Assembly (NCBI GenBank): GCA_964360675.1
Contig: CAYHXT010000001.1
Span: forward strand, 10,491 to 74,490
Reading direction: 5' to 3'
Source of the DNA: an uncultured Methanosarcinales archaeon
GTDB taxonomy: Archaea; Nanobdellota; Nanobdellia; Woesearchaeales; GW2011-AR9
Length of the DNA stretch: 64,000 nt
Shown here: positions 9,283 to 56,235 of the stretch, in pieces
How the letters are laid out: every line of letters begins with the position of its first letter
Numbering within the stretch: position 1 is the first letter of the stretch
The notes under the pieces: generated by a model
Databases searched by the model: none
Seen by the model: the letters and a program-made list of their open reading frames with translations, nothing else
What the model was told of the DNA's origin: nothing
Position numbers and translations under genes: made by a program

Positions 9283-12168
9283 ATGGAAAAAGTAGTTAGG
9301 AAGATTGCTTATATCGGGGTAGTCTGCGACCTTTTCCATTACGGCCATCTACGTTCCATTCAATTTGCCAAATCTATCTCTGATTACTTGGTTTGCGGGG
9401 TGTTTACTGATGAAGTAGTAGAAGGATATCGGGTTAAGCCGATGGCTAATTATGAAGAGAGGAAAGCCGTGGTGGAAAGTCTTCGCGATGTGGATGCGGT
9501 TGTAGTTCAGGAACAAAGGGACCCCACTAAAAATTTACAACTCATTCATGAAGAGTTTCCAGAGGCAGAAATAATTTTAGTGCATGGTGATGATCTGCAT
9601 TATGTTCACGGAGAAGATTATATTAAAAGCATCGGCGGAAAAGTGGTAAAACACCCTTACTATCCCCGCCTTTCAAATTTTAAGATCATAAATTATCTGT
9701 TGGAAAATAAAGATAAATTCAAAGACATCACGGATTTTACTGCTTTTATAACTGAGAAAGATAAACTTGATGCCGAAGCGCACCAAGGAAATAAAGTGAT
9801 TATCTCTTCTAAAGCAGATACTCTTAAAGCTCTGCAGCCGCTATTGAAAAAATCTAAAATCGAGCCGTTGTATAGTTTTACTATCTCCGACTGGAAGAAT
9901 CAGAAAGAGCAGGTTCTGGCGAGAATACAAGAATTATTTTCTCCTTTTCTGATCGTGGTCAGAAGCTCTGCGGTAAAGGAAGATACTTTCGAACAATCCA
10001 TGGCCGGCTGTTTTGAAAGCGTGCTTAACGTTGATTCTGAAGAAAAAGCAAAAGTGGAAGAAGCAATAAATAAAGTATCCATATCTTACAAAGAAAAAGA
10101 TGCGGAAACTTCTTTCAATCAGATACTTGTTCAAAAGCAGACAGATGATGTCTCTATGAGCGGAGTGGTTTTTACCAGGACTTTAAGCAAAAACGGACCC
10201 TATTACGTCATAAATTACGACGATACTACCGGAAGCACCGATTCAGTGACTGCTGGCAGGGAAAACAAGACCCTCTACATAAGCCGATTCGCCTCTCAAA
10301 TCCCGAAAGAAATGGATGGTTTGATGAGTGCAGTAAGGGAAATTGAAAATATAATCCCTTCCTTCCCGTTAGACATTGAATTTGCCGTGCAGAGCGATGG
10401 AAGCATAGTTATTTTTCAAGTGCGCCCTTTAGCTGCGAATATATACAAGGAAAAATCTGACGAAGAAGTGAAACGGATGATTGATTCCTTAAAATTAACC
10501 TTTCAAAAACATACTGGTCGGCATCCGCATCTGGCGGGAGAAATAACTTTCTTTGGCGATATGCCCGACTGGAATCCGGCAGAAATAATCGGCGACAGGC
10601 CAAACAATCTGGATTATTCCTTATATGGCTATCTAATCACCGATAGCGCATGGCATGAAGCCAGGACTTCACAGGGATATTACAATGTCAATCCGGCCAG
10701 GTTGGTGGAGCTGTTTGGCAACAAACCTTATGTCAATGTGAGAAACACTTTCAATTCTTTTATACCCTCTTCAATTTCTCCGCAGCTGCGCGAAAAGTTA
10801 GTCTCATTTTACTTAGATAAATTGCGCAGAAATCCGCATCTTCAGGACAAGGTTGAATTTGAAGTTCTCTATACCTGTTACGACCTAAATTTTGACCAAA
10901 GGTCTAAAGAATTAGCTGGGGCGGGATTTTCACTCGAAGATATCGCCCAATTAAAAAGCGCTTTGTTATATCTGACCAACCATCTGATCACAGATGCGCC
11001 TAAATCGACAGATGACGATTTAAAAATCGTTTTCAGCATGAATGAATCACGTAAATCAATTTCTACTGTAATCGCAGAATCCGGCAGATCGCAGGAATTG
11101 ATTGCTGAATGTAAGGCCCTTCTAGACCAGTGCAGAAAGAAAGGGACGGTGCAGTTCTCTCGATTGGCAAGGCTGGGCTTCATCGCCAAAATAATATTTC
11201 GGAGCATGGTGGATAGAAAAGTTATAACTCAACAATTTTATGACCAAAAATACAAATCTATAAGCACCGTAGCTACAAAGATCAATGACGATTTTAAGAA
11301 ATTAATGAAGGGGGAATTATCAAAAGAAAATTTCATCAAGGAATATTATCATCTCCGGCCGGGAACATATGATATCACCAGCCCGCGTTATGATGCTAAT
11401 AAGGAACTCATCAACACGTTTAAAATAGTTGGGGGTGGGCTGGAAAAAGAAAGGCTGGAACTAACTAAAGAAGACGATATTAAAATTACCGCTGCATTGC
11501 AGGCGGAAGGATTATTGTGCAATGCAGAGCAATTCCTTAATTTTGTAGAATTATCAACGCAAGCAAGAGAGCTTTCTAAATTTGAATTTACCAAGAATCT
11601 CAGCGATGCTTTAGAATTACTTGCAGAAGCTGCAGAAAGGATGGGGCTTGCTAGAAAAGAGGTTGCTACACTTGATATTAATGATATTTTTTCCAGTATT
11701 TCCGTGCCGCAAACAGAAGAGATTGTAACCGGATGGAAAAAACTTATCCAGAAACACAGTTCCGAAAAAGCGCTGCATGAAAAATTAGTTCTTCCTCCAA
11801 TTATATTTTCCAGCAATGATTTTGAAGTAATACGGTTTTATCTGGCAAAACCTAATTTCATAACTCATAAAAATATTGAGAGTAAAATCGTCCACGTGAA
11901 CGACTTAAAAGACAAAATTGTCCCTGATCTTGAAGGTTGCGTGGTGGTTTTAGAAAATGGAGATCCGGGCTACGATTGGATATTTACCAGAAATCCGGCC
12001 GGATTGATTACGAAATATGGGGGGATCGCTTCGCATATGTCTATAAGGTGCGCAGAATTCGGCATCCCTGCGGCGATTGGCTGCGGCGAACTGATATTCA
12101 ATAAGCTTAAAACTGCGGAAAAAGTCATTCTGGATTGTAAATCAAATAAAATAATCCCTTTACCTTAA
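9283..12168 (+). CDS. fusion protein: N-terminal cytidylyltransferase (HxGH, TagD-like) fused to a PEP-synthase/rifampin-phosphotransferase-like kinase (PPDK_N ATP-grasp + phosphohistidine swivel domain)
   Basis: Residues 10-140: AYIGVVCDLFHYGHLRSIQFAK (cytidylyltransferase HxGH). Residues about 220-420: VRSSAVKEDTFEQSMAGCFESVLNV (PPDK_N signature). C-terminus: ITKYGGIASHMSIRCAEFGIPAAIGCG (PEP-utilisers phosphohistidine motif). The kinase part resembles the Cj1418 L-glutamine kinase architecture. Confidence 0.7.
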   Translation: MEKVVRKIAYIGVVCDLFHYGHLRSIQFAKSISDYLVCGVFTDEVVEGYRVKPMANYEERKAVVESLRDVDAVVVQEQRDPTKNLQLIHEEFPEAEIILVHGDDLHYVHGEDYIKSIGGKVVKHPYYPRLSNFKIINYLLENKDKFKDITDFTAFITEKDKLDAEAHQGNKVIISSKADTLKALQPLLKKSKIEPLYSFTISDWKNQKEQVLARIQELFSPFLIVVRSSAVKEDTFEQSMAGCFESVLNVDSEEKAKVEEAINKVSISYKEKDAETSFNQILVQKQTDDVSMSGVVFTRTLSKNGPYYVINYDDTTGSTDSVTAGRENKTLYISRFASQIPKEMDGLMSAVREIENIIPSFPLDIEFAVQSDGSIVIFQVRPLAANIYKEKSDEEVKRMIDSLKLTFQKHTGRHPHLAGEITFFGDMPDWNPAEIIGDRPNNLDYSLYGYLITDSAWHEARTSQGYYNVNPARLVELFGNKPYVNVRNTFNSFIPSSISPQLREKLVSFYLDKLRRNPHLQDKVEFEVLYTCYDLNFDQRSKELAGAGFSLEDIAQLKSALLYLTNHLITDAPKSTDDDLKIVFSMNESRKSISTVIAESGRSQELIAECKALLDQCRKKGTVQFSRLARLGFIAKIIFRSMVDRKVITQQFYDQKYKSISTVATKINDDFKKLMKGELSKENFIKEYYHLRPGTYDITSPRYDANKELINTFKIVGGGLEKERLELTKEDDIKITAALQAEGLLCNAEQFLNFVELSTQARELSKFEFTKNLSDALELLAEAAERMGLARKEVATLDINDIFSSISVPQTEEIVTGWKKLIQKHSSEKALHEKLVLPPIIFSSNDFEVIRFYLAKPNFITHKNIESKIVHVNDLKDKIVPDLEGCVVVLENGDPGYDWIFTRNPAGLITKYGGIASHMSIRCAEFGIPAAIGCGELIFNKLKTAEKVILDCKSNKIIPLP

Positions 12169-12169
12169 A

Positions 12170-12850
12170 ATGTTATGCGCTATTTCGTTACGGCAGGAAA
12201 AGAACAAGCATGGCGAGGATATTGATGTTTTAGAGCAAAGGTATATCCACTATTTTGAAAAATTCGGCTTGAAACTGCTGCTGATACCTAATGGTCATGA
12301 TGTCGATTATTACTTTGAAAAATTTCCAATAGAAAGGGTTGTCCTGAGCGGAGGAAACGATGTTGATCCGCAGATGTATGGCGGAAAACGTGAAGAAGGG
12401 ATGTCTATAGTTTCCGAACGCGATATAACAGAAAGAAGGATAGTAGAATTAGCTGTCAAGAAGAAGATACCTCTACTGGGAATATGCAGGGGGATGGAAT
12501 TTTTGAATATATATTTTGGCGGAAAATTGATTAATATCAAGAATGAATATGGCAAAGAGGCGCATCTGCCGGGGAAAGAGCATCCTCTGCACATACTTGA
12601 TGGCCAAGAGCTTCTCAGAAAAGAAGTTAGAGTAAACTCTTTCCATAATCAAGCTCTTACTGAGAAAGAGCTTTCTTCAAACTTGCAGGCATTTGCAGTC
12701 AGCGATGAAGGGATAATAGAAGGATTTAATCATTCTTCGTTGCCATTAGTTGGCGTACAGTGGCATCCTGAACGAGAAAGCCCAGATGAAGAATTTAATG
12801 CGCAATTAGTGAAAGCTTTTGTTGAAGGAAAATTGTGGTGGAAGAGATGA
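12170..12850 (+). CDS. class I glutamine amidotransferase-like hydrolase (peptidase C26 / gamma-glutamyl hydrolase type; Cj1417-like)
   Basis: Nucleophile motif LLGICRGMEFL and a C-terminal VQWHPE His-Pro-Glu motif. 226 aa. Confidence 0.6.
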   Translation: MLCAISLRQEKNKHGEDIDVLEQRYIHYFEKFGLKLLLIPNGHDVDYYFEKFPIERVVLSGGNDVDPQMYGGKREEGMSIVSERDITERRIVELAVKKKIPLLGICRGMEFLNIYFGGKLINIKNEYGKEAHLPGKEHPLHILDGQELLRKEVRVNSFHNQALTEKELSSNLQAFAVSDEGIIEGFNHSSLPLVGVQWHPERESPDEEFNAQLVKAFVEGKLWWKR

Positions 12851-13665
12851 AAGCCATTATTCTCGCAGCAGGTATGGGTACCCGCTTAGGCAAATACACC
12901 GAAGACCTTCCGAAATGCATGTTAACTTTTGATGGAAAACCATTGATCGAGAGGCAGGTTGAGACCCTGCGTAGTGCAGGCATCACTGATATTTCTATAG
13001 TTAGGGGATATAAATCTGAGAAAATAAGCCTTGCCGGAGTAAAATATTACCACAATCCAGATTTTGCGACAACTAACATGGTAGAAACTTTATTCTGCGC
13101 AGAAAAAGAGCTGGATGAAAAAGAAGATGTTTTGATATGTTATGCTGATATCATCTATGAACCTAAAGTTCTTCAATCAATAATTGAATCTGGTGCGCAG
13201 ATAGGCGTTACGGTCGACAATGATTATTTGGATTATTGGAAATCAAGGATGGATAATCCGGAATCGGACATGGAAAGTTTAGTGGTTGAGGATGGAATGA
13301 TAACCGAACTCGGCGATACTAAATGTGTCAGAGACAAAGCTGAAGTAAGATACGTTGGATTGATTAAGCTCTCCAAAGAAGGAGTGCGGAAACTAAAGGA
13401 AACATATCATTATCATAAACAACAGCACTTTCATAAAGATGAGCCTTGGCTGAGATCAAAATCTTTCAAGAAAGCATACATGACCTGCATGCTGCAGGCA
13501 TTGATTAACGCAGGGCACGAAGTTAAGCCGATTGTGATTTCGCGGGGCTGGTTAGAATTCGATACTGTTGAAGATTATGAGAAATACAGCAGATGGTTGG
13601 AAGAAGGGACGTTAAGCAGATTTATCAACTTGCAGTTAAACAATAGTATTTCACAACGTTTTTAA
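12847..13665 (+). CDS. sugar-phosphate/phospho-amine nucleotidyltransferase (NTP_transferase fold; LicC/Cj1416-like cytidylyltransferase candidate)
   Basis: MKAIILAAGMGTRLG N-terminal motif. Start chosen at the ATG overlapping the upstream stop (ATGA); the ORF track also allows a GTG at 12835. Confidence 0.6.
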   Translation: MKAIILAAGMGTRLGKYTEDLPKCMLTFDGKPLIERQVETLRSAGITDISIVRGYKSEKISLAGVKYYHNPDFATTNMVETLFCAEKELDEKEDVLICYADIIYEPKVLQSIIESGAQIGVTVDNDYLDYWKSRMDNPESDMESLVVEDGMITELGDTKCVRDKAEVRYVGLIKLSKEGVRKLKETYHYHKQQHFHKDEPWLRSKSFKKAYMTCMLQALINAGHEVKPIVISRGWLEFDTVEDYEKYSRWLEEGTLSRFINLQLNNSISQRF

Positions 13666-13689: not shown

Positions 13690-15957
13690 GTGTCTAAAGG
13701 CATGGAAAAAAAGGTAAAGATAATTGTAACTATAGGGCCATCTACTAATTCTGAAGAAGCGATGCTTAAGATTAAGGATAAAGGCGTTGATTTTGTCAGA
13801 GTAAATATGTCTCATTCTGATATCAATTACCTTAAGGATACCATTGCCTTAGCCAAGAAAGTAGGTCTCCCTTTTGTAATTGATACTGAAGGATCACAGG
13901 TAAGAACCGGCGAGCTGGGCACTTCTACAATCGAATTGGAAGATAATGAAGAAATTAAAATTTATAATCATAAGATAGTCGGAGATAAAGACAAAATCAA
14001 CTTAACTCCTTATTCGGTAGTAGACCAATTAGAAGTGGGCGATTTAATCCTAGTAGATTTTGACACCGCAATATTGCGTATTTCTGACACGGCTACAATC
14101 AATCGGGGATATGTCACTGCCAGAGCTATCACCGGGGGAATAATCGGCAAAAATAAAGCAGTGATAATTGATCCCATATCCAATAAAAAAATAATCCTTC
14201 CCACTCTTTCGGAGAAGGATTATCAATCTATCCAAGTGGGCCTGCAGGAAGGGATTGGGCATATTGCCGCATCATTTATGCGTTCGGGCAAAGCAGTAGA
14301 TGAAGTGCGTAAAGCTACCCAAAATACCATGAAGATAATCTCAAAAGTTGAATGTATAGATGCCTTAGAGAACATTAATGATATTATTCGTAAATCTGAC
14401 TACCTGCTGATTGACAGGGGAGATCTCAGCAAAGAGATCCCCATTGAAAAAATTCCGTTAACTCAGAAGATGATAATCAACAAGGCAAAGAAGTATGGTG
14501 TCGGCGTATTTGTGGCTACTAATCTTCTGGAAACCATGATAGATCATAAGAAACCTACCAGGGCGGAAGTACATGATGTCCTAAACACCATTGTAGATGG
14601 TGCGGGAGGATTAGCATTAGCTGCAGAGACAGCTATCGGAAAATATCCCCTGGCTTGTATTAACATGCTGAACAAAATAATAAAGCATGCTCAACAGGTT
14701 AATGTTGAAGAATTCAGGGATAAAGAAGATAAATTTGTAGAAAAACTTGAAAAGAGCAATTATCTGCTTGATTTCGATATGTCTTCTTCTTTAGTCGCTC
14801 CCCACGGCGGTAAATTAGTTGATCGTATGGTTAAAGAAATGCCTTCCTCGAAATATCTTCATTCCCTGCCAGTTATAAAATTAAATGAAAGTCATCGGCG
14901 CGATGTGGAACAAATAGCAATAGGTACTTACAGCCCGATAGATGGTTTTATGGGAAAAGAAGATTTCCAATCGGTATTAGACAGAATGAGGCTGGCTAAC
15001 GGCCTGGTGTGGCCAATGCCCATAACTCTTGATGTCCCGGAGGATCAAGCAGATATGCTGCTATTGGGTTCTGAAATAGCTTTATCTGGCGATGAGGGCG
15101 AAATCATTGCTTTATTAGCCCTTCAGGAAAAATATACTTTTGATAAATCAGAGACTGCTCAAAAATTATATGCTACTGACAGCTTAGATCATCCTGGAGT
15201 AAAGATGATTATGGGAATGAATTCGGTTCTTCTCGCCGGACCAATAACTTTACTTAAAAGGATCAGGAATGAATTTAAGGAATATGAAATAACCCCTAAA
15301 CAAGCCCGCCGCCTTTTTGAAGAAAGAGGATGGGAGAAAGTAGTAGGTTTCCACACCAGAAATGTGATACATCGCAGTCATGAATTCATCCAGATGGAAG
15401 CATTGCAGAAAAGCAATTGCGACGGCCTTTTTGTACATCCTGTAGTTGGCAAGAAGAAATCAGGCGATTTCAGTGCTAAATTCATAATCAAAGCTTATGA
15501 TCTGATGATAAAAGATTTTTATCCCAAGAATAAAGTTATTTTTGGGACGTTTTCAACTTATTCCAGATATGCCGGACCGAGAGAAGCGCTGTTCACGGCT
15601 TTATGCAGGAAAAATTTCGGATGCAGCCATTTCATCGTAGGCCGTGATCATACCGGAGTGGGAAATTTCTACCATCCCAAGGCATCTCATAATATTTTTG
15701 ACCGCTTTCCTGATTTAGGCATCGTACCTATTCGTTTTGATAATGTGTTCTATACTAAAAAAGAAGGGCGTTATATGCACGAGCAGGAATATCCAAATCA
15801 CCCTGAAGAGGATAAGCTGCTTATCAGCGGCACTCAGGCCAGAAAAATGTTCGAGAACGGAGAACTGCCGCCCGGCTGGTTCATGCGTCCAGAGATTTCG
15901 CAGTTAATTATTGGTGCGGTCAAAAATGGAGAAGAAGTTTTTGTAAAAGATGTTTAA
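13690..15957 (+). CDS. fusion: pyruvate-kinase-like barrel domain (N-terminal 350 aa) + ATP sulfurylase (sulfate adenylyltransferase-like) domain
   Basis: N-terminal part: IIVTIGPS...VDFVRVNMSHSD...FVIDTEGSQVRTG, LIDRGDLSKEIPIEKIPLTQKMII and PTRAEVHDVLNTIVDGAGGLALAAETAIGKYP, all pyruvate kinase motifs. C-terminal part: LVAPHGGKLVDRMV, GFHTRNVIHRSHEFIQ (QTRN..HRAH) and GRDHTGVG (GRDHAG), the ATP sulfurylase signatures. Confidence 0.7.
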   Translation: MSKGMEKKVKIIVTIGPSTNSEEAMLKIKDKGVDFVRVNMSHSDINYLKDTIALAKKVGLPFVIDTEGSQVRTGELGTSTIELEDNEEIKIYNHKIVGDKDKINLTPYSVVDQLEVGDLILVDFDTAILRISDTATINRGYVTARAITGGIIGKNKAVIIDPISNKKIILPTLSEKDYQSIQVGLQEGIGHIAASFMRSGKAVDEVRKATQNTMKIISKVECIDALENINDIIRKSDYLLIDRGDLSKEIPIEKIPLTQKMIINKAKKYGVGVFVATNLLETMIDHKKPTRAEVHDVLNTIVDGAGGLALAAETAIGKYPLACINMLNKIIKHAQQVNVEEFRDKEDKFVEKLEKSNYLLDFDMSSSLVAPHGGKLVDRMVKEMPSSKYLHSLPVIKLNESHRRDVEQIAIGTYSPIDGFMGKEDFQSVLDRMRLANGLVWPMPITLDVPEDQADMLLLGSEIALSGDEGEIIALLALQEKYTFDKSETAQKLYATDSLDHPGVKMIMGMNSVLLAGPITLLKRIRNEFKEYEITPKQARRLFEERGWEKVVGFHTRNVIHRSHEFIQMEALQKSNCDGLFVHPVVGKKKSGDFSAKFIIKAYDLMIKDFYPKNKVIFGTFSTYSRYAGPREALFTALCRKNFGCSHFIVGRDHTGVGNFYHPKASHNIFDRFPDLGIVPIRFDNVFYTKKEGRYMHEQEYPNHPEEDKLLISGTQARKMFENGELPPGWFMRPEISQLIIGAVKNGEEVFVKDV

Positions 15958-15974
15958 ACAAAACAAAATAAAAC

Positions 15975-16559
15975 ATGGAAGATACCAACAATCCTAAATT
16001 ATTGATCGTCTTCTGCGGCCTTTCCGGCTCCGGAAAAAGTTTTAATGCCAGAAAGCTTCAGCAACATCTTCCTGGATATACTATTGTTGGTCCCGGCATT
16101 CTGCGTGAACAATTAAACATCAAAACCTACAGTAGAAAAGATACCCCCAAACTTCTTGCCAAAGTTATCGAACAAATCGAAGAAAACCTAAGAGAGAATA
16201 AAGGGTCTATTGTCGATGCTAACCTTAAAAGCCTGGATGTAAGGCAATTTTTCCACGACACAGCTAAAGAGCTGGGTATAGGTTCCGTTCTTATTGAAAC
16301 CTATTGTTCTTCCGAAACAACCAAAAGCCGCATGGAAAAAAGGGAGCAAAGAACTCTGGCAGAGAATCCCAAACATTTTACTGTTTATCTAGAACAAAAA
16401 CGGTCATGGCAAAACCCCTTATTAGACTTAGAATTAGAAAGGAACAATCATGTTTCGCTAATCCGCATAAACACCGAAAATAAAATGACTGACCAAATTA
16501 AGATAAATGAAAACAACAAATCGATGGTCAATAAAATAATGGAAATACTTAAAGAATGA
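15975..16559 (+). CDS. P-loop kinase, APS-kinase/CysC-like (candidate APS kinase or Cj1415-like CDP-amidate 3'-kinase)
   Basis: P-loop VFCGLSGSGKSF resembles the APS kinase GLSGSGKST loop. 194 aa. The remainder is not strongly CysC-like. Confidence 0.5.
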   Translation: MEDTNNPKLLIVFCGLSGSGKSFNARKLQQHLPGYTIVGPGILREQLNIKTYSRKDTPKLLAKVIEQIEENLRENKGSIVDANLKSLDVRQFFHDTAKELGIGSVLIETYCSSETTKSRMEKREQRTLAENPKHFTVYLEQKRSWQNPLLDLELERNNHVSLIRINTENKMTDQIKINENNKSMVNKIMEILKE

Positions 16560-16560
16560 A

Positions 16561-17502
16561 TTATTTCTTCTGCGCTAAAAACACGACACTATTGCCGAAT
16601 TTATAAATTCCGGGAATGTTCTTCTTATTACTGGCTGATTGCAGGTATCTGTCTAATCTTTTGGCAAACGGGAACAACACCCGTTTCTTAGTAAGGTATC
16701 CCGCCCCGTCATAACGTACAATATTGAATTGTTCCAGCTGAAATAATTTTTTTAATCTGCCAAAGGACAAAGCATTTTTACGCACTAAACCTATTTGTTT
16801 GTGCTGCTGCAAGCTTTCCTTATATTTTTCTGCTTTAGAAAAAACTGAAGATAGCGCAGCAGAAAAAAAATAAGGGATATAAAACAGCGGGGTATCCTGC
16901 CATCGTAATTCATAACGCCTTCGCGTAGTAAGATAATATAGCGACCTTATCCATTTTAAGGGCCCATCAATACTGCTGATGCCATACATATTGCGCTGTG
17001 CCAAAATGAAATGGCCGTTTGGTTTTAAAACACGTTTTACTTCACTAAAACACACTTCTGGAAACTGCAAATATTGTAAGAATCCCAATCCTGCAACACA
17101 ATCAAAAGAATTATTTGGAAAATCTAATTTTTCCGCGTTACCGATGAGGAATTCATAATTGCCCTTCGCATCGGCGGTAGATGTTTTCTGGCAGTTCTTG
17201 ATAGCAATTGCCCTTAATTTATTAGATATATCAATCCCAACTAAATTATGTCCTCTGGCATAAATCTTGGCAGAAGTTATACCTGCTCCGTATCCTAATT
17301 CCAGGACCCGCGCTCCCTGAGGCAAGTTTATAGAATCTAAATATTCTAAAACCGTTTCCTCCCTTCCCCGTAATCTATTCCCGTTGTAATTATCTTCATA
17401 ATAATGCTTTTCCCAGCGGCCTAAATCTTTCTCTTCATTCCACTTCTTTATTGCCTGTTGATTTTGATTATAATCCATAGTATTACCCTTCCTGCGCATC
17501 AA
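16561..17502 (-). CDS. class I SAM-dependent methyltransferase
   Basis: VLELGYGAGITSAKI motif I and a downstream VGIDIS acidic motif. 313 aa. Confidence 0.7.
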   Translation of the reverse strand: MMRRKGNTMDYNQNQQAIKKWNEEKDLGRWEKHYYEDNYNGNRLRGREETVLEYLDSINLPQGARVLELGYGAGITSAKIYARGHNLVGIDISNKLRAIAIKNCQKTSTADAKGNYEFLIGNAEKLDFPNNSFDCVAGLGFLQYLQFPEVCFSEVKRVLKPNGHFILAQRNMYGISSIDGPLKWIRSLYYLTTRRRYELRWQDTPLFYIPYFFSAALSSVFSKAEKYKESLQQHKQIGLVRKNALSFGRLKKLFQLEQFNIVRYDGAGYLTKKRVLFPFAKRLDRYLQSASNKKNIPGIYKFGNSVVFLAQKK

Positions 17503-17652
17503 TTTATAAACATTTCTCCAGTTTAAACGCTGAGAATTCTACCCTTCTAATGAATGGTGGCGGCCGATTTCTCTTTTTGACAAATGAAATAATAAATCTC
17601 ATTAATCCTACCTGCACAACATTTAAAAACACTTTTAACGGGGAACATACCC

Positions 17653-18462
17653 GTGGAAATGAAATCATCTCTATACGGTTTGAAAAGATATGGTATGAAA
17701 AGTTTTCTTAAAAATGTCTTTTCCATCGCTGTTAGCGATGCCGTGGTAGTCTCCTTTCAAAAAAGCGGCAGGACGTGGTTACGTTTGATGTTAGGCAAAG
17801 TATTAGAAGAGCAATATAAAATAAAAAGAGTCCGTTTAGATACTGAATATATGACTTTATTCAAACTCTTACCGAATGTTTTATTTTCACATGGGGGGTG
17901 CACGAAAAATAACAATACAATTGATTTCAGGAAAGTGTTTAAAAATAAAAAAGTTGTGGTCTTGGCAAGAGATCCCCGTGCGGTTATGGTATCATTATTT
18001 TATGACCATACTACCCGTAACCTCTTGTATAATGGAAACAATATCTCCGAATTTATCCGTGATGAAAATTTTGGGCTGCCTAAGGTTATGAAGTTCATGG
18101 ACGCTTGGGGCGGAGAATTACAACAAAGAGATAACATTTTATTGATACGTTACGAAGATCTTTACACAGATACCCCAAAAGAACTGAAACGTTTCCTTGA
18201 ATTTATAGGTCTTACTGCAACAGAAGAAGTATTGAATCGTGCTGTAGAATATGGTTCTGTAAAGAATATGCGCAAAATGGAACTTAAAAATGAATTTAAA
18301 GACCGCCGTATGCTGCCAGGAGACACAAAAAACAAAAACTCATATCGTACCAGAAATTGTAAACTCGGCAGTTTCAGGGAAGAATTAAATAAAGAAGATT
18401 TAGATTATATAACCAAGTTAATGAAAGAACAATTGCATCCTATTTTTAACTATAATGGATAA
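17653..18462 (+). CDS. PAPS-dependent sulfotransferase
   Basis: 5'-PSB loop SFQKSGRTWL (K-S/T-G-T-W type) and 3'-PB motif ARDPRAVMVS (RDPRD type). 269 aa. Confidence 0.7.
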   Translation: MEMKSSLYGLKRYGMKSFLKNVFSIAVSDAVVVSFQKSGRTWLRLMLGKVLEEQYKIKRVRLDTEYMTLFKLLPNVLFSHGGCTKNNNTIDFRKVFKNKKVVVLARDPRAVMVSLFYDHTTRNLLYNGNNISEFIRDENFGLPKVMKFMDAWGGELQQRDNILLIRYEDLYTDTPKELKRFLEFIGLTATEEVLNRAVEYGSVKNMRKMELKNEFKDRRMLPGDTKNKNSYRTRNCKLGSFREELNKEDLDYITKLMKEQLHPIFNYNG

Positions 18463-18464
18463 CT

Positions 18465-19298
18465 ATGTTTTCTGCCCTTCCCATAAAAATCAGAGCAAAT
18501 CTTGCCCGTCCAGTTCTTGAAGCAGCAATTGCTGCCGGAAAGGAAATTTTACAAATATATAATCAAGATTTTAAAATTACATTTAAACAGCAACAAGAAC
18601 CGCTGACAGAAGCCGATCTTGTCAGCAATAAAATTATCTTAAAAGCGCTTAAGAAAACAAATATTGCCATTCTTTCAGAAGAAACTAAGGATAATTTAGA
18701 ACGAGTTGACCAGGATCTTCTATGGATTGTTGATCCATTAGATGGGACCCGGGAGTTTATCAACAAAAATGGAGAATTCTCTGTTATGGTTGGATTAGCA
18801 GAGAAAGGTATTCCGGTCCTTGGTATCATCTATCAGCCTACAACTAAAGATCTTTTTCTCTCCTCTAAAGGCGAAGGCGCATATGAAAAAACTACGGAAG
18901 GCTGGAAAAGGCTCAAAACCACCGCCATCACTACTTTGTCGGAAGCGCGCGGCATTTTAAGCAGAAATAATCTTTCTGAGGAAGAGGCCAGATTTTTAGA
19001 AAGAAATAACATCAATAAGTTTACGCAAAAAGGCAGCGCTGGGTTAAAAGCCGGGGAAATCTGCCGCGGCAACGCCGAATTTTATTTTAACAGCACAAAT
19101 AAACTCAAAGAATGGGATACCTGCGCGGCCCATAGCCTGATTCTAGAGGCGGGGGGCAACCTGACTACATTCAGGGGAGAGGAAATAACTTATAACAAAA
19201 AGGACCCGATACATCATGGAGGGGTTCTCTTTACCAATAATATAATCTTACATGAAAATCTACGGAAGAAAATAATTTCTAAATATAAGAATCTTTAA
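18465..19298 (+). CDS. cysQ: 3'(2'),5'-bisphosphate nucleotidase (inositol monophosphatase family)
   Basis: WIVDPLDGTREF metal-binding motif of the IMPase/CysQ family. Translationally coupled to the sulfotransferase, with a 2-nt gap. Confidence 0.75.
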   Translation: MFSALPIKIRANLARPVLEAAIAAGKEILQIYNQDFKITFKQQQEPLTEADLVSNKIILKALKKTNIAILSEETKDNLERVDQDLLWIVDPLDGTREFINKNGEFSVMVGLAEKGIPVLGIIYQPTTKDLFLSSKGEGAYEKTTEGWKRLKTTAITTLSEARGILSRNNLSEEEARFLERNNINKFTQKGSAGLKAGEICRGNAEFYFNSTNKLKEWDTCAAHSLILEAGGNLTTFRGEEITYNKKDPIHHGGVLFTNNIILHENLRKKIISKYKNL

Positions 19299-20734
19299 TG
19301 TTTTCTCCAAAAATAAAATAATTTCTTATCTTCAGCATTAAATTCCCGCATTAACCATAATAACAAGATATACAAAATAAATAATAAAGTAGAATAAAGT
19401 AATAATCCTATTCCCTTAGCCGGAAGTAAGCGTATTAAAAAAAATAAAGGCGCTGTTGCTAAAATAATGCGGATAAATGACTGCCAGGGAACAAATTTCC
19501 CCGAAATATTGAACAGAGAAAATGTCTGTATAAGGCAGGCTATAAATCCAATTAGGCCCGCAAACAATGTTGCTAACGCCGCCCCTTCCAGGCCGTAGCG
19601 CGGAATAAAAATCAATCCTGATATAAACGCTGCCAACAATGAAACCAAGGCAATTATCATCGCAAAAACATGGCGTCCCGCCCCCGATAATACTGAAGAA
19701 AGTAAGAAAAACAACGCGAAAAATCCGTGCCCTATAATCAGGATGCGTAATGCGTTACCTGCAACTATAAATTCATTAGGATAAAATAATGAAAGTATTT
19801 GTTCTGCGTAACCGTAAATCAAAACACCCAAAGGGATTAATAACATAAGGGAATAGCGCAATGAAAGCGCAACATATTTTTTAACAAGAAATAAATTATT
19901 TTCTGCCACTGCTTTAGAAACAGACGGAAGTAATGTTAGTGGCAATGCCGAAAGCAAGGAGAATGTAATCTTGGCCAAAGTGCTTGCTGCGGTATAATAT
20001 CCCGGTAATGCAGCATCATCCAATTGGCTCTTAATCAAAAACAATCCCGCATCCATGGCCAGCATCAAAGCACCATAATAAACTGTAATAGGCAGTGAAA
20101 ATTTTAACAGAGTTATTATCGGAAATACCTCCCTTGATTTTTCTAAAGAAATAGTCTTCCAAACAAAAAGAAGCGCGAATAAAGGCGCAATGATATATGC
20201 AAACACCACCCCATACAAATTGAACCCAAAATAAACTAATCCAATAGCTAACAAAAATCTAACTACGGAGTGGATTGCTTCTGCCAAGGCTTGCTCTTTG
20301 AAAAGTCTCATCCCATTGAGATAACCATCGTTATATACTACATAAATCCCCACGGATAGGACTACCAGGGAGGATAAACGAATGGGCCAGATTAAAGAAG
20401 AATCGTGTAGTTTTTCGGCTAAAAATCCGGCAAAGAAAAAATACAATATCACACAAAGAGAAATAAATAGCAATTGCAAATGAAACCCGCTTCTTAGCAC
20501 TGCATGGAAAGATTCTTTCTGTTCCGAAATGTATTTTGAAATCGCTTTCGTCGTTCCAGTCAAAAATAAAGTCTTTGTAATCATAATAATAGAAAGGATA
20601 ATTCCCATATTGCCATAGGCTGCTGCGCTTACTAGGTGCGCCAAGGAAATATGGAGCAAATAACCGGAGAGTAAAATCACAAACTGTGTTGCCATCAGAT
20701 AGGCAGTTCCCTTTGCAACGACGTGCTGATCCAT
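19295..20734 (-). CDS. MOP-superfamily polysaccharide transporter (Wzx-like flippase)
   Basis: 479 aa with about 12-14 TM helices and the glycine- and leucine-rich polytopic profile typical of O-unit flippases. Confidence 0.6.
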   Translation of the reverse strand: MDQHVVAKGTAYLMATQFVILLSGYLLHISLAHLVSAAAYGNMGIILSIIMITKTLFLTGTTKAISKYISEQKESFHAVLRSGFHLQLLFISLCVILYFFFAGFLAEKLHDSSLIWPIRLSSLVVLSVGIYVVYNDGYLNGMRLFKEQALAEAIHSVVRFLLAIGLVYFGFNLYGVVFAYIIAPLFALLFVWKTISLEKSREVFPIITLLKFSLPITVYYGALMLAMDAGLFLIKSQLDDAALPGYYTAASTLAKITFSLLSALPLTLLPSVSKAVAENNLFLVKKYVALSLRYSLMLLIPLGVLIYGYAEQILSLFYPNEFIVAGNALRILIIGHGFFALFFLLSSVLSGAGRHVFAMIIALVSLLAAFISGLIFIPRYGLEGAALATLFAGLIGFIACLIQTFSLFNISGKFVPWQSFIRIILATAPLFFLIRLLPAKGIGLLLYSTLLFILYILLLWLMREFNAEDKKLFYFWRKH

Positions 20735-21453
20735 TAAATCTCTCCTGGTTTATCTAGACGGTAATTGTTATTTAATTGAGTTGCGACTTTTCTTATCAGT
20801 TCTAAGAATAAAAATAAGGTGTAAATCACGAGAACATAATAATGTAATCCTAAAAGTGTTCCGAAAAACATCAGATTAAAAAGATATTCTAATCTAAAAA
20901 ATGCAAACACGGAATAAAGTAACGTATGCTGATTCTTAAGCAGTGACTTTCCAAAAGATGCCTCTATAAGATGCTGATGTTTTTTATCTGAGTACCACAA
21001 AGGATTAAGCGTCGTTGCCTTATTCAATAAAAACAGCAGTGCGGCGAAAATACCCAGCAACAGCGGTAAGATTTTTCCGGTAATTCTAAATGTGCCTATG
21101 CCAAAACATATAAGCAATAGGGGATTAGCAATGTAGTGCCCTAAATAATCAAAATATATCCCATTAAGGGAAAACTGCTTCTTATAACGGGCGATAATTC
21201 CGTCGGAACAATCCAGAATAAAGAATAGTTGGAAAATAGTTACGCCTATGAGCATAGATAACCAAGTGCCTTTTGCAACAAAAAGCGCTGATGCGATCTG
21301 CCCGATAATCCAGATAATAGTTACTTGGTTGGCAGTTAGGGGCGTATGTAAAAATAGCCAAGCCGGATAATAAGCCAGATAATCCATAAAGGAATAGATG
21401 AAATCTCTTCTTTTAGTTTTAGATATTTTACGTAATTCTTTGATGGTTATCAT
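20734..21453 (-). CDS. CDP-alcohol phosphatidyltransferase family membrane protein
   Basis: DCSDGIIARYKKQFSLNGIYFDYLG matches D-x2-D-G-x2-A-R-x8-G-x3-D. Polytopic, 239 aa. Confidence 0.55.
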   Translation of the reverse strand: MITIKELRKISKTKRRDFIYSFMDYLAYYPAWLFLHTPLTANQVTIIWIIGQIASALFVAKGTWLSMLIGVTIFQLFFILDCSDGIIARYKKQFSLNGIYFDYLGHYIANPLLLICFGIGTFRITGKILPLLLGIFAALLFLLNKATTLNPLWYSDKKHQHLIEASFGKSLLKNQHTLLYSVFAFFRLEYLFNLMFFGTLLGLHYYVLVIYTLFLFLELIRKVATQLNNNYRLDKPGEI

Positions 21454-23293: not shown

Positions 23294-23896
23294 ATGAAAA
23301 AATTAATCATCCGGTTCGACAAAAATAAATGTGTGGGGAATGGTGGTTGTGTAGCTGCGGCTCCAGATTTCTTTAAATTAGAGGAAGATAAGTCTGTATG
23401 TATCGGTGCAAAAGTAGATAAAAAAACCAATATTTATACTTTAATCATCCCTTGCGATGATGATACTGCCAAACAGATCGTTGCAGCAGGAGAAAGCTGT
23501 CCGGTAAACGCGATAGGCGTCTACGATGCTGATACGAAGCGGGAAATCGTCAGCACCAGCGTAGATACACTTAATACTAAAGAAATATTTGCTACTTATG
23601 ACGATGCAAAAGAATTTGTTCTCGATAAAGAAGGATATTTCCTGATAAGGCTTGATAAGGGACGTAAGCTGATTGAAGTCGCATTCTGCAACGAGAAAAA
23701 TAAAATCGTATTAACTGTCCGCGGAAAAAAGCCGATAGATATTTATCATACTATCTTGAATAAAGAAAAGCTCCCCATCAGGAAAGAACATGCTGCATAT
23801 CTCGGCCGGGAACTGCAGAAGGCGTATATAGCGCTGGAGAACGGCTTAAATTATGTACAAGACGACGAACTTGTTCTGACAAAACTAAATAAATGA
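23294..23896 (+). CDS. ferredoxin-domain protein (mono-cluster 4Fe-4S-like N-domain + uncharacterised C-domain)
   Basis: CVGNGGCVAAAP...C...CP cysteine pattern in the first 75 aa. 200 aa. Sits next to B12-radical SAM genes. Confidence 0.45.
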   Translation: MKKLIIRFDKNKCVGNGGCVAAAPDFFKLEEDKSVCIGAKVDKKTNIYTLIIPCDDDTAKQIVAAGESCPVNAIGVYDADTKREIVSTSVDTLNTKEIFATYDDAKEFVLDKEGYFLIRLDKGRKLIEVAFCNEKNKIVLTVRGKKPIDIYHTILNKEKLPIRKEHAAYLGRELQKAYIALENGLNYVQDDELVLTKLNK

Positions 23897-23912
23897 TTAT
23901 TTGAGAATCAAA

Positions 23913-25448
23913 TTATTTCCGCTTCATTTTATTTTTTGATAATTTATTTCTTATCAGTTTCTTAAAGTTGAAAGTGTAATATCCTATATAATTAAAGATA
24001 CGATAATCTGTCTTCTTTAATGCGACCAGTAATTCAAATGGAAGGGGCGGTATAAGGAAAAATCCCTTATATGTCTTTGAAGTAAGAAAGAAATTTACCA
24101 TCCATCGTGGATATAATTGCAGACTTTTCATCATAAATTGAAAATTTTTAATCAACCTTGCTGCTTTTTTATCTTTTACTGAACCGCCGGTAATGTAAGT
24201 GTTCTGCGCTCCTTGTTCAGCTTCTTTGACTTGTTCATCAGTCGCGCTAGTTTTCTGCAGAACCGAAGTGGAAGGGAAATATTGCAGCCAGTAACAAGTA
24301 ATCCTTACCGGCCTGTATTTGTTGAATAAACGTATCGCAAATTTCATGTCCTCTTCAGTTTCACCAAAGCCGAACATCATGTCGACATAGAAATTAAGCT
24401 TATATTTGCTGCAGGCCTTAAGAGCATTGATGATATCTTCAGTAGTCTCAATTCTAGTCATCATTTTTCTCTTAATTTCCTGATTGAAAGTCTGAATGCC
24501 CATCTCTAACTTATAACATCCGCTTTCTTTCAATAGTTTTGCTATTTCATCATCAACGTGAAGCGGATGAGTTATGGCTCGGTAAGGGACATTAATCTCT
24601 AGTTTATATTTTGGCAAAAATTTACGCAGCCATTCTTTATCATGGGTGAATATGTCATCTTCAAAACTGACATACTTGAACTTGTATTTCTGTTTAGCTA
24701 GTCGCAATTCTCCTAAGACATGTTCCGGGCTTCTTCTGCGGACGTATCTGTGCGCATCTTTTACATATAATTTACGCAGAAGATTATGGCAGCAGAAACT
24801 ACATGCAAAAAGGCACCCTCTGGCAGTTGCAATCATGTAATGCTTCATTGGCACATGGGGCGCAAACAACGCTTTATTTGGATAAGGTAAAGAATCTAAA
24901 TCTTGTTTAAGAGGCCTTACTGGATTTCCCATAGCCTTACCGTCTTTCTTATACCATACATTGGGAATAGCATAATTAGGTTCCTTCTTTTGTATTGAAG
25001 CCAGCAGTTCCAGAAGAGAATCTTCCGATTCTCCAACTACAACGTAATCAACACAGTCTTCCTGTACAGTTTTCTCAGGGACTGAGGTAGGATGAATGCC
25101 TCCGAAAATAATCGGTATATTTTTCGCTTGTTTCATTTTGCGTGCTATATCTAAAGCCCATTGATTACAGTCTGAAAATACCGAAAATAATACTATGTCC
25201 GGATTGGTCGCCAGTACATCTTCTACGATGTTTTTATATTTGAATAATTTTGCAAGGAAAGGTATTTGAAGATAATACTTGTCATCAAACAAAGCAGGAT
25301 CAAAAACCAACGCAGTTTGGTGTCCATGTTTCTCCAACATAGCGGAGAGACTTTCGATGCCGAGATTCTCAGCGCCCATATATAAGAAAGTGACTTTCAT
25401 CTTTTTAGGGGAAGAATACTTGTTTTTAAACTTTTCTAGTCTTTGCAA
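23913..25448 (-). CDS. B12-binding (cobalamin) radical SAM enzyme
   Basis: CLFACSFCCH, a CxxxCxxC radical SAM cluster motif, preceded by a B12-binding-like N-domain. 511 aa. The start may be the internal MKVTFLY. Confidence 0.75.
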   Translation of the reverse strand: MQRLEKFKNKYSSPKKMKVTFLYMGAENLGIESLSAMLEKHGHQTALVFDPALFDDKYYLQIPFLAKLFKYKNIVEDVLATNPDIVLFSVFSDCNQWALDIARKMKQAKNIPIIFGGIHPTSVPEKTVQEDCVDYVVVGESEDSLLELLASIQKKEPNYAIPNVWYKKDGKAMGNPVRPLKQDLDSLPYPNKALFAPHVPMKHYMIATARGCLFACSFCCHNLLRKLYVKDAHRYVRRRSPEHVLGELRLAKQKYKFKYVSFEDDIFTHDKEWLRKFLPKYKLEINVPYRAITHPLHVDDEIAKLLKESGCYKLEMGIQTFNQEIKRKMMTRIETTEDIINALKACSKYKLNFYVDMMFGFGETEEDMKFAIRLFNKYRPVRITCYWLQYFPSTSVLQKTSATDEQVKEAEQGAQNTYITGGSVKDKKAARLIKNFQFMMKSLQLYPRWMVNFFLTSKTYKGFFLIPPLPFELLVALKKTDYRIFNYIGYYTFNFKKLIRNKLSKNKMKRK

Positions 25449-25604
25449 TAATTAAAAATTAGCAAGAATGTTTAGATTTTATTTCTTAAAATAATATCTT
25501 TGTGTTGCTAATTAGACCTAACTGATCTCATCACGTATCACATCACCAAAATGCAAAGCGCTTCTACGCCGTTGTCGCTTTACCAATTATCCTTTTTATC
25601 TATT

Positions 25605-30109: not shown

Positions 30110-30230
30110 GAGTGGACAGCTTACCGGGGTTCCCGCACACTAATGCAGTAAAGCCCAGTACGGAGACGCGCTTAACTTCGGAGTTCGAAATGGGATCCGG
30201 TGAACCACGCCCCTATGACCGTCCATATGC
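30110..30230 (-). rRNA. rrf: 5S ribosomal RNA (orphan copy)
   Basis: The reverse complement reads ATGGACGGTCATAGGGGCGTGGTTCACCGGATCCCATTTCGAACTCCGAAGTTAAGCGCGTCTCCGTACTGGG...GGGAACCCCGGTAAGCTGTCCA. It contains the universal CCCAT(T/A)CCGAAC..GAAGTTAAGC loop B/C core. Helix I ends pair (TGGACGG / CTGTCCA). Confidence 0.7.
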
Positions 30231-43274: not shown

Positions 43275-43275
43275 T

Positions 43276-43851: not shown

Positions 43852-43944
43852 GTAACTTACTTCATTGAATATTTTATAAAGATTATGTTATATTGTTCAA
43901 ATTAACAGTAAAGCTTATTAATATTCTAACAACTTTTTACAAAA

Positions 43945-56213: not shown

Positions 56214-56235
56214 TCAAGTGGTAAGGGAGAGCGTA

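Follow-up and report, generated by a model that had tools for sequence, protein, structure and literature searches.

A pyruvate kinase-ATP sulfurylase fusion in a candidate sulfation cassette of a DPANN-type archaeon

Rhizobial NodP/NodQ with NodH and mycobacterial CysQ/Stf are dedicated sulfation cassettes. In the archaeon Halobacterium salinarum, N-glycan sulfation involving VNG1056C and VNG1057C is reported to take place at the dolichol-phosphate-bound stage, and these two enzymes were found via their structural resemblance to sulfatases (PMC11980604). Metagenomic surveys of DPANN and candidate phyla radiation (CPR) genomes take 'sat' to indicate sulfur cycling or dissimilation (PMC8091004, PMC12153355). 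Here we examine a 64-kb stretch of contig CAYHXT010000001.1 (the window, meaning the whole 64,000 nucleotides analysed), which encodes a fusion of pyruvate kinase (PK) to a Sat-type ATP sulfurylase (PK-Sat), followed by a P-loop kinase, a sulfotransferase and a CysQ-type phosphatase. We propose, with a probability of about 0.68, that these proteins form a self-contained cycle of 3'-phosphoadenosine 5'-phosphosulfate (PAPS) serving the sulfation of a surface glycan, or of a lipid-linked precursor, in a DPANN-type archaeon. The basis for this is domain identities, motif conservation, folds and conserved gene order, from which we infer what the kinase does, that the PK domain recycles ADP and what kind of acceptor is used.

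The original prediction, made from this DNA alone, was of sulfate activation, sulfotransfer and recycling of 3'-phosphoadenosine 5'-phosphate (PAP) within a glycan locus; in its main lines this reading holds, and all four open reading frames (ORFs) lie where it placed them; their domain E-values against Pfam are so strong that the four-gene observation is real and far beyond chance. The genes are not contiguous as had been claimed, since a 313-aa methyltransferase gene on the minus strand (16561-17502) splits the kinase from the sulfotransferase. Nor is the host a bacterium: the nearest named homologues of all four proteins come from metagenome-assembled genomes of Nanoarchaeota and Woesearchaeota, and genes for a thermosome-type chaperonin and an STT3/AglB oligosaccharyltransferase lie in the contig flanks, which together identify a DPANN-type archaeon. 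The 194-aa kinase of this locus also occurs, identical, on contigs from several sequencing runs, among them a 99.5-kb contig (Hain_H52_02um) that, judging by its name, probably comes from a 0.2-µm groundwater fraction. The genes are:

13702-15957, plus strand: PK-Sat fusion, 751 amino acids (aa) from the ATG at 13702 chosen by gene callers; the ORF opens with a GTG at 13690 (755 aa)
15975-16559, plus strand: candidate adenosine 5'-phosphosulfate (APS) 3'-kinase, a P-loop protein of AAA_33/KTI12 type, 194 aa
16561-17502, minus strand: S-adenosylmethionine-dependent methyltransferase, 313 aa (Methyltransf_11, 72 bits)
17653-18462, plus strand: PAPS-type sulfotransferase, 269 aa (Sulfotransfer_1, E = 1.6e-26, 93.7 bits)
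18465-19298, plus strand: CysQ-type 3'(2'),5'-bisphosphate nucleotidase, 277 aa (Inositol_P, PF00459, E = 2.1e-49, 168.9 bits)

The PK-Sat fusion and its gene partners

The fused ATP sulfurylase that had been predicted was borne out (PF01747), and its partner, which had been left unnamed, is pyruvate kinase. The domains of the fusion, and the two motifs in which it departs from other sulfurylases, are as follows:

13708-14658, plus strand: PK barrel domain (A+B), aa 7-323 (PF00224, E = 8.6e-69, 232.6 bits, profile positions 2-327 of 328)
aa 370-524, plus strand: PUA_2 domain (PF14306, E = 1.8e-48, 164.6 bits)
aa 531-741, plus strand: Sat-type ATP-sulfurylase domain (PF01747, E = 1.8e-77, 260 bits)
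15349-15363, plus strand: FHTRN (HXRN for QXRN), at the position of yeast Gln195 in an alignment to solved sulfurylases
15640-15657, plus strand: GRDHTG (for GRDHAG, the GRD loop), from alignment to solved sulfurylases

PK-Sat passes two sulfurylase cut-offs (TIGR00339, 359.4 vs 322.95; NF003166, 442.5 vs 387), and the best match to its sulfurylase part in the PDB is the ATP sulfurylase of Methanothermococcus thermolithotrophicus (8a8d, E = 2.5e-101), that to its PK part being the PK of G. stearothermophilus (2e28, E = 1.3e-54). Aligned to solved PKs, the barrel retains the catalytic and metal-binding motifs RVNMSHS, DTEGSQVR, SKVEC, DRGDLS, ATNLLETM and AAETA, which are kept in 118-119 of 120 homologues, and the invariant PK columns of the homologue alignment include K215, E217, D241, T273 and E309. 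PK_C has no match in the fusion, and TIGR01064 scores 279.9, below its cut-off of 306.4, with a match that ends near profile position 349 of 476.

Counts of PK-Sat homologues refer throughout to the 120 best listed, and counts of PK-Sat loci to the best 80 of the 502 matching stretches (in about 500 species genomes) returned by a scan of one genome per species. The PK + PUA_2 + ATP-sulfurylase architecture occurs in 120/120 homologues, several of which add a C-terminal canonical APS-kinase domain (about 930 aa), and the fusion is present in all 80 loci. These span DPANN archaea, Patescibacteria, Chloroflexota, Acidobacteriota, NC10, Planctomycetota and Omnitrophota, and include a single cultured strain, [Flexibacter] sp. 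ATCC 35103, whose locus (L086) has PK, Sat and APS kinase in a triple fusion. With this uniform architecture, and with the identical protein found on 6 contigs, an assembly or frameshift artefact was rejected as the source of the fusion. A full-text literature search returned no description of a PK-sulfurylase fusion; where PK occurs in that literature, it seems either to serve as a coupling enzyme or to have no connection with sulfurylase.

Four conserved motifs have been listed for sulfurylases, among which the Gln of QXRN hydrogen-bonds the sulfate of APS (PMC6607087). In PK-Sat the HXXH motif reads HRSH (aa 557-560), with H557 and H560 invariant in the homologue alignment. At the QXRN position, occupied by Gln in the three solved sulfurylases aligned, His is found in 120/120 homologues and in 79 of the 80 genome loci; the Thr of GRDHTG is found in 118/120 homologues and 78/80 loci, the G, R, D and H of this loop being retained. 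HXRN and GRDHTG together make up a sequence signature of the PK-Sat family.

The gene neighbours of PK-Sat indicate what its product is. Six-frame translations of the 80 loci were searched with the window proteins and with a canonical APS-kinase domain. In 24 loci PK-Sat and a canonical APS kinase share one chain; in a further 24 the two are at most 300 bp apart and in 10 at most 10 kb, while 21 show no kinase, several of these owing to contig ends. Those of the adjoining kinases that were tested pass TIGR00455 (184-186 bits vs a cut-off of 138.7). Since the regular partner is an ordinary APS kinase, the product of PK-Sat would be APS. CysQ homologues occur in 15 of the 80 loci, and the enzymes of the pathway are joined in several ways: as APS kinase-CysQ fusions (L011, L015 and L075), as a PK-Sat-APS kinase-CysQ fusion (L072) and as an APS kinase-sulfotransferase fusion (L053). 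In four Chloroflexota loci (L025, L026, L028 and L030) PK-Sat has as its neighbour an APS kinase of two domains, of which the N-terminal one is sulfurylase-like but degenerate and has lost the QXRN, HXXH and GRDHAG motifs, so that PK-Sat is the sole intact sulfurylase there. The sulfurylase-like domain of the Thiobacillus denitrificans APS kinase (3cr8) is inactive.

These neighbours bear on an alternative in which the altered sulfurylase activates some other oxyanion, or in which the PK domain serves a purpose other than ATP regeneration. Both substitutions fall in conserved motifs, HXRN replacing the very Gln by which sulfurylases contact the sulfate of APS; both hardly vary within the fused family (His in 120/120, Thr in 118/120), and the literature searched held no description of the fusion. 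However, genes for canonical APS kinase, CysQ and Sulfotransfer_1 proteins are the regular partners of the family, PK-Sat is the one intact sulfurylase beside the APS kinase in the Chloroflexota loci, and it passes the sulfate adenylyltransferase equivalog-domain cut-off. We therefore consider this alternative improbable.

The sulfotransferase, the phosphatase and the proposed cycle

The motifs quoted in the original prediction for the sulfotransferase (QKSGRTW, RDPRA) and the phosphatase (DPLDGT) are all at the expected positions, and further functional sites can be added to them:

17758-17778, plus strand: 5'-phosphosulfate-binding motif (5'-PSB) QKSGRTW, aa 36-42 of the 269-aa sulfotransferase
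17890-17892, plus strand: catalytic His80 ('FSHGG'), from conservation in 28 homologues
17968-17994, plus strand: 3'-phosphate-binding motif (3'-PB) RDPRA (aa 106-110, nucleotides 17968-17982) with Ser114
18349-18375, plus strand: R234..G239 loop (C-terminal R-K-G), from the sulfotransferase family alignment
18732-18749, plus strand: DPLDGT, aa 90-95 of the CysQ-type phosphatase
19113-19127, plus strand: WDTCA, aa 217-221 of the CysQ-type phosphatase

Across the alignment of 28 sulfotransferase homologues, S34, K37, G39, R106, P108, S114, R234 and G239 are invariant, Y167 and E168 (of 'YEDL') are invariant or near-invariant, and W42 is at least 90% conserved. The original prediction hung in part on the presence of a catalytic His, and His80 is likewise found in at least 90% of these homologues; phmmer placed the catalytic His of the SULT enzymes on an Asn 6-7 residues downstream of it, and we take His80 to be the catalytic base because of its conservation in the family and the predicted strand-then-His topology. 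The best sequence match in the PDB is SULT1C3 (E = 4e-11). An AlphaFold 2 (AF2) model of the enzyme (predicted local distance difference test, pLDDT, 92.7) retrieves with Foldseek a top 50 made up almost entirely of PAP- or PAPS-bound sulfotransferases and the sulfotransferase-fold retinol dehydratase, at probability 1.00 and template modelling (TM) scores of 0.59-0.70.

It had also been asked whether the phosphatase might match inositol monophosphatases (IMPases) or fructose bisphosphatases (FBPases) better than CysQ. The top NCBIfam model is CysQ (TIGR01331, 183.1 bits), followed by HisN (121.3), FBPase/IMPase (82.2) and SuhB (69.7), and against the PDB it matches CysQ (3b8b) at E = 5.4e-34 and IMPases at 1.4e-20 or weaker. 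The sulfotransferase and phosphatase genes had been described as translationally coupled; they are indeed close, with a gap of 2 nucleotides (stop codon at 18460-18462, CysQ start at 18465), but do not overlap. In the related loci L087, L088, L091 and L093 the two adjoin with an overlap of 4-20 nucleotides or a gap of 6.

The 150-bp spacer (17503-17652) between the divergent methyltransferase and sulfotransferase genes holds A/T-rich TATA-like boxes, 'TTTATAAA' near 17503-17510 and 'TTTAAAAA' near 17622-17629, the second some 25-30 nucleotides upstream of the sulfotransferase start codon. Such boxes would be consistent with the sulfotransferase and CysQ genes having an archaeal transcript of their own, possibly a leaderless one.

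In the cycle that we propose, the Sat domain of the 751-aa fusion would convert ATP and sulfate to APS and pyrophosphate, and the 194-aa kinase, standing in for the canonical CysC-type enzyme found at this place in most other lineages, would convert APS and ATP to PAPS and ADP. The soluble 269-aa enzyme would then transfer sulfate from PAPS to an acceptor hydroxyl, giving a sulfate ester and PAP, probably in the cytoplasm and before the action of the neighbouring flippase, and the 277-aa CysQ-type phosphatase would hydrolyse PAP to AMP and phosphate, clearing an inhibitory by-product. A cytoplasmic lipid- or nucleotide-linked precursor is a plausible substrate, given that the enzyme is predicted to be soluble and that a flippase gene is adjacent. 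The PK domain would convert phosphoenolpyruvate (PEP) and ADP to pyruvate and ATP, and in so doing feed both ATP-consuming steps locally and take away ADP. Its role is most likely the PEP-driven regeneration of ATP from the ADP of the kinase step, which in this scheme is the sole producer of ADP as the PK domain is its sole consumer; the frequent triple fusions of PK, Sat and APS kinase fit this logic. APS kinases are inhibited through a dead-end enzyme-ADP-APS complex, hence removal of ADP would help the kinase step.

Assimilatory sulfate reduction was rejected as the purpose of the cluster: neither a PAPS/APS reductase nor a sulfite reductase is present among the annotated and scanned ORFs of the window, and the sulfurylase is flanked by the sulfotransferase and CysQ.

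The 194-aa kinase and the phosphoramidate branch

The second enzyme of this cycle has the following motifs:

16014-16040, plus strand: P-loop CGLSGSGKS
16128-16148, plus strand: YSRKDTP
16215-16229, plus strand: DANLK

The family of this kinase is small: a word-index search found only 22 relatives, and when HMMER was run exhaustively, 11 cluster representatives reached E <=1e-30 and 147 reached <=1e-10. Its gene stands right behind PK-Sat in 8/8 distinct contexts (with two small genes between them in L007), in none of which a canonical APS kinase lies within 10 kb; nor is there a canonical APS kinase within the 64-kb window. One related locus (L087) consists of just these four genes in a row, PK-Sat, kinase, sulfotransferase and CysQ. 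In L092 (1043-6480), which represents the most distant branch of the family, a PHP-family phosphoesterase follows the kinase in place of CysQ, and more distant relatives are fused to IMPase/CysQ-family phosphatases (P0292, P0329 and P0352). The kinase thus occupies the same slot as the APS kinase of other PK-Sat loci, the two have a mutually exclusive distribution, and the sulfotransferase downstream needs a 3'-phosphorylated donor; for these reasons the best reading of the 194-aa protein is that it is most likely an APS 3'-kinase and a non-orthologous replacement of CysC.

Two further observations concern this family. The opposite strand of L092 carries sulfatase/phosphodiesterase-family genes. 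In P0285 (443 aa) a distant kinase relative is fused to a nucleoside triphosphate (NTP) transferase, 31% identical over its first 140 residues to the 276-aa NTP transferase of the window, which hints that the kinase family can partner with nucleotidyltransferases too.

Several points weigh against the proposed cycle. The kinase belongs to AAA_33 (52.7 bits)/KTI12 and has no match to PF01583 or TIGR00455; phmmer against the PDB gives nothing below E = 0.09, and a profile of its family matches PFKFB with E = 0.004 and, over the P-loop only, APS kinase (5cb6) with E = 0.87. The top 50 Foldseek matches of its AF2 model (pLDDT 89.7) comprise PFKFB kinase domains, Pnkp kinase, PSTK, gluconokinase and adenylate kinases, with no APS kinase, and the LDGDxxR, ISP and KGLY motifs of the canonical domains in P0037, P0058 and P0119 are not in its sequence. 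The case for its APS-kinase activity is thus made from position and co-occurrence only, and a cysC gene could lie elsewhere in the genome, about 84 kb of contig having been covered. As to the other enzymes, two of the four conserved motifs are altered in the sulfurylase domain (to HXRN and GRDHTG), so that its anion specificity is not proven; the role given to the PK domain derives solely from the fusion itself and the conserved catalytic residues; and the CysQ-like protein scores below the TIGR01331 cut-off (183.1 vs 228.8 bits). A pyrophosphatase and a sulfate transporter were not identified in the cluster.

The same evidence could mean that the 194-aa protein is not an APS kinase and instead phosphorylates a sugar, a glycan intermediate or another nucleotide, with PAPS supplied by a cysC gene elsewhere or with a lineage that stops at APS. 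Its nearest folds (6-phosphofructo-2-kinase, polynucleotide kinase, PSTK and gluconokinase), the profile E-values (0.004 for PFKFB vs 0.87 for APS kinase) and the lacking LDGD, ISP and KGLY motifs all suit such a reading. Against it stand the strict positional equivalence to APS kinase and the mutually exclusive distribution of the two, the 3'-phosphate-binding residues retained by the adjacent sulfotransferase with CysQ after it, and the distant relatives fused to IMPase/CysQ-family phosphatases. In addition, hhalign aligns the kinase with APS kinases over 49 N-terminal columns only, at 96% probability, and this partial alignment takes in the substrate-binding stretch, the family-invariant R44, Y52, S53 and D56 being paired with the APS-kinase 'DGDxxR...GFSxED'. 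The description 'APS-kinase-like' in the original prediction therefore holds weakly, for the P-loop and some 49 N-terminal columns, but not for family models or fold. On balance we regard a non-APS kinase as unlikely, though worth weighing, and retain the APS 3'-kinase reading.

Directly upstream of the sulfation genes lies a second set:

9283-13665, plus strand: cytidylyltransferase-glutamine kinase fusion, C26 amidohydrolase and NTP transferase (961, 226 and 276 aa)

Cj1415, the kinase of the comparable O-methyl phosphoramidate (MeOPN) genes of Campylobacter jejuni, is a CysC-family member, an identity not matched by the 194-aa kinase, which has no CysC-family sequence or fold match. The glutamine-kinase fusion scores 843 bits against NF004508 (cut-off 501); the C26 hydrolase has its best NCBIfam match in NF045546 (gamma-glutamyl-CDP-amidate hydrolase) at 93 bits, which is below cut-off; and the NTP transferase (12835-13665) matches NTP_transf_3 at 67.8 bits. 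By these matches the trio is a predicted Cj1418/1417/1416-like phosphoramidate-donor branch. The genes from glutamine kinase through C26 hydrolase, NTP transferase and PK-Sat to the kinase follow one another on a single strand, with overlaps or spacers of at most 36 nucleotides, and elsewhere the NTP transferase is fused to PK-Sat (P0054) or to the glutamine kinase (L061 and L102).

The two sets of genes are nevertheless separable modules. Most PK-Sat loci are without the trio, the 194-aa kinase family itself occurring without it in three contexts (L087, L090 and L092), and in a metagenome scan the trio was found without PK-Sat in L096-L099 and L101, none of which has a homologue of the sulfotransferase or of CysQ. 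Among these trio-only loci, L097 has a divergent CysC-like kinase joined to its glutamine kinase in one protein and L098 has one as a direct neighbour (96 bits, below the TIGR00455 cut-off), the trio of L096 is accompanied by a thymidylate kinase (TMK)-like kinase, and that of L099 has no kinase nearby. Homologues of the methyltransferase above 100 bits were found, in the loci sampled, only together with the trio (the window, L014, L061, L088 and L093) and not in L087, L090, L011, L053 or L062; because its close homologues are confined to trio-containing loci, the methyltransferase at 16561-17502 probably belongs to the phosphoramidate (O-methyl) branch and not to sulfation.

It had been suggested that the sulfotransferase-fold enzyme might transfer phosphoramidate from 3'-phospho-CDP-amidate and not sulfate from PAPS. 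Such a donor would be PAPS-like through its 3'-phosphate, the sulfotransferase gene is close to the phosphoramidate branch, and no Cj1421/1422-type transferase was identified in the window. The comparative loci disfavour the suggestion, however, as homologues of the 269-aa enzyme occur with PK-Sat and APS kinase in the trio-less L011, L053, L062 and L087 (in L053 fused to a canonical APS kinase) and are missing from the trio-only loci L096-L099 and L101. The sulfotransferase and CysQ hence track the sulfate genes and not the phosphoramidate genes, which argues against the alternative donor. The model of the enzyme also resembles PAP/PAPS-bound structures, and Trp42 (at least 90% conserved) and Tyr167 belong to conserved motifs ('TW' and 'YEDL') that provide the adenine contacts in cytosolic sulfotransferases. 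Phosphoramidate transfer by this enzyme is accordingly highly improbable, and a PAPS-dependent sulfotransferase is preferred.

A different link between the modules would be a shared kinase, with the 194-aa enzyme phosphorylating cytidine diphosphoramidate as well as APS, and CysQ clearing both PAP and cytidine 3',5'-bisphosphate (pCp); this would add to the proposed cycle rather than replace it. It would suit the arrangement of trio, PK-Sat and kinase in one tightly spaced same-strand block. The sampled loci with both trio and PK-Sat (the window, L014, L015, L061, L088, L091 and L093) each have a single nucleotide-kinase candidate by the module, which fits a shared kinase but does not show it, and trio loci without PK-Sat tend to have a kinase of their own (CysC-like in L097 and L098, TMK-like in L096). 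Cj1415 has moreover been reported as necessary for the 3'-phosphorylated donor (PMC11800397). Conversely, L099 has the trio and no kinase nearby, and the kinase family is found without the trio in L087, L090 and L092. Nor is the 194-aa protein the only kinase-like gene product here, two other P-loop genes being present in the window at 43276-43851 (AAA_28) and 62521-63870 (TMK-like). The donor might, finally, work without 3'-phosphorylation, for example via the CDP-alcohol phosphotransferase-like protein encoded at 20734-21453. We hold a shared kinase to be possible, if on the unlikely side. Also doubtful is the wider proposal that PK-Sat with a 3'-kinase constitutes an undescribed PEP-driven PAPS synthase widespread among ultrasmall archaea and bacteria, in which, in the present lineage, an unrelated polynucleotide kinase/6-phosphofructo-2-kinase (PNK/6PF2K)-like kinase has taken over the APS-kinase step and, together with one CysQ, serves both PAPS-like donors.

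Some features of the phosphoramidate branch stand apart from these questions. The glutamine-kinase homologue (9283-12168, plus strand) has an extra N-terminal HIGH-type cytidylyltransferase domain, which among solved structures is most similar to 5x3d, a 160-aa chain that was deposited under the name phosphoenolpyruvate phosphomutase and is the cytidylyltransferase domain of Fom1; the next are ethanolamine-phosphate and glycerol-3-phosphate cytidylyltransferases. With the separate NTP transferase at 12835-13665, the branch thus has two candidate cytidylyltransferases. The 239-aa CDP-alcohol phosphotransferase-like membrane protein (20734-21453, minus strand) recurs near the trio and/or PK-Sat, its gene being present also in L096, L097, L099, L009, L010, L053, L088, L090 and L091, and could in principle transfer phosphoramidate from CDP-amidate with release of CMP and without 3'-phosphorylation. 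At 60983-63870 (minus strand) lie genes for a thymidylate-kinase-like P-loop protein of 449 aa and a GT-B-like protein of 519 aa, which share 39% and 34% identity with a pair directly after the trio in L096; a dedicated phosphoramidate kinase and transferase was considered for this pair and not adopted, as it occurs also in the trio-less L053 and L011. Between the NTP transferase and C26 hydrolase genes of L088 (12123-12692, plus strand) is encoded a protein of 189 aa that weakly matches the HIT domain, whose enzymes have nucleoside phosphoramidates and adenylylsulfate as substrates.

The glycan island and comparison with known systems

Glycan-synthesis genes dominate the scanned ORFs of the window, including GT2 and GT4 transferases, PMT_2 proteins, flippases, nucleotide-sugar enzymes, a NeuB-type fusion and B12-radical-SAM enzymes. 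Within 23294-26894 and 58314-59873 are genes for three radical-SAM enzymes that bind B12 and for a fusion of ferredoxin with a PterinBD-DUF4346 domain, which suggests unusual C-methylation or related chemistry on sugars. A C-methyltransferase is joined to GDP-mannose 4,6-dehydratase (40430-42673, plus strand), and a CMP-sugar cytidylyltransferase, a KdsC-like phosphatase and a NeuB-like synthase are combined in a predicted one-protein route to nonulosonic acid (56179-58317, plus strand). A DegT/DnrJ-type aminotransferase (36132-38432, plus strand) is split by an intein (Intein_splicing, 77 bits, with Hint-type domains). A run at 42675-45097 encodes a HAD hydrolase, a 191-aa AAA_28 P-loop protein (one more kinase-like gene), a NUDIX hydrolase and an NTP transferase. 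Amid the island lies an isolated 5S rRNA gene (30111-30226, minus strand, 64.5 bits against Rfam), and a tRNA scan of the 64 kb found zero tRNA genes.

The proposed pathway is itself ordinary; what is new, relative to the literature found, is the PK fusion with its altered pocket signature, a non-CysC kinase in the APS-kinase slot and the DPANN setting. The altered sulfate-pocket signature, in a fusion to which the scan found matches in about 500 species genomes, offers enzymologists a concrete target. If the kinase acts as proposed, it is a non-orthologous replacement for APS kinase which pathway prediction based on cysC would miss. A classical PAPS-type sulfotransferase route would be added to archaeal surface-glycan biology, and sulfated glycans may matter for the attachment of episymbionts to their hosts.

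The closest described enzymes are the Sat-CysC PAPS synthases, such as those of Aquifex aeolicus (2gks) and human (PAPSS1). As in these, a Sat-type sulfurylase is coupled physically or genetically to the APS 3'-kinase step, and many relatives of PK-Sat have a CysC domain on the same chain. PK-Sat differs in having an extra N-terminal pyruvate-kinase barrel and the HXRN and GRDHTG motifs, and in the window lineage the kinase is encoded by a gene of its own and lies outside the CysC family. A protein similar to the two-domain APS kinase of Thiobacillus denitrificans (3cr8) is found in the Chloroflexota PK-Sat loci, whereas the window has none.

The genes upstream resemble the MeOPN donor pathway of C. 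jejuni (Cj1415-Cj1418), in which Cj1415 is reported to be needed for the 3'-phosphorylated donor (PMC11800397), in that both comprise a glutamine kinase, a C26 hydrolase and an NTP transferase. Unlike that pathway, the window has no CysC-type Cj1415 homologue, its 194-aa kinase being of another family, and its glutamine kinase bears the extra HIGH-type cytidylyltransferase domain; compared with C. jejuni, some loci related through the trio are without any sulfation genes.

With the rhizobial NodP/NodQ and NodH and the mycobacterial cassettes the locus would share a private activation of sulfate for a PAPS-dependent sulfotransferase acting on a surface glycoconjugate, with CysQ removing PAP. 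Those cassettes use a CysD/CysN-type sulfurylase and GTPase, while here the sulfurylase is of the Sat type, fused to PK and in an archaeal host. This bears on how 'sat' is read in metagenomes of DPANN and CPR organisms: in the loci inspected 'sat' is a PK fusion, lying mostly by an APS kinase and partly by CysQ and sulfotransferases, and the archaeal PK-Sat loci sit in glycan clusters, all of which points to cell-surface sulfation instead of sulfur cycling or dissimilation. As in H. salinarum, an archaeal surface glycan would be sulfated, and the precursor-stage sulfation proposed for the window would resemble that at the dolichol-phosphate stage; unlike the sulfatase-like haloarchaeal enzymes, however, that of the window belongs to the classical Sulfotransfer_1 proteins and carries both the 5'-PSB and the 3'-PB motif.

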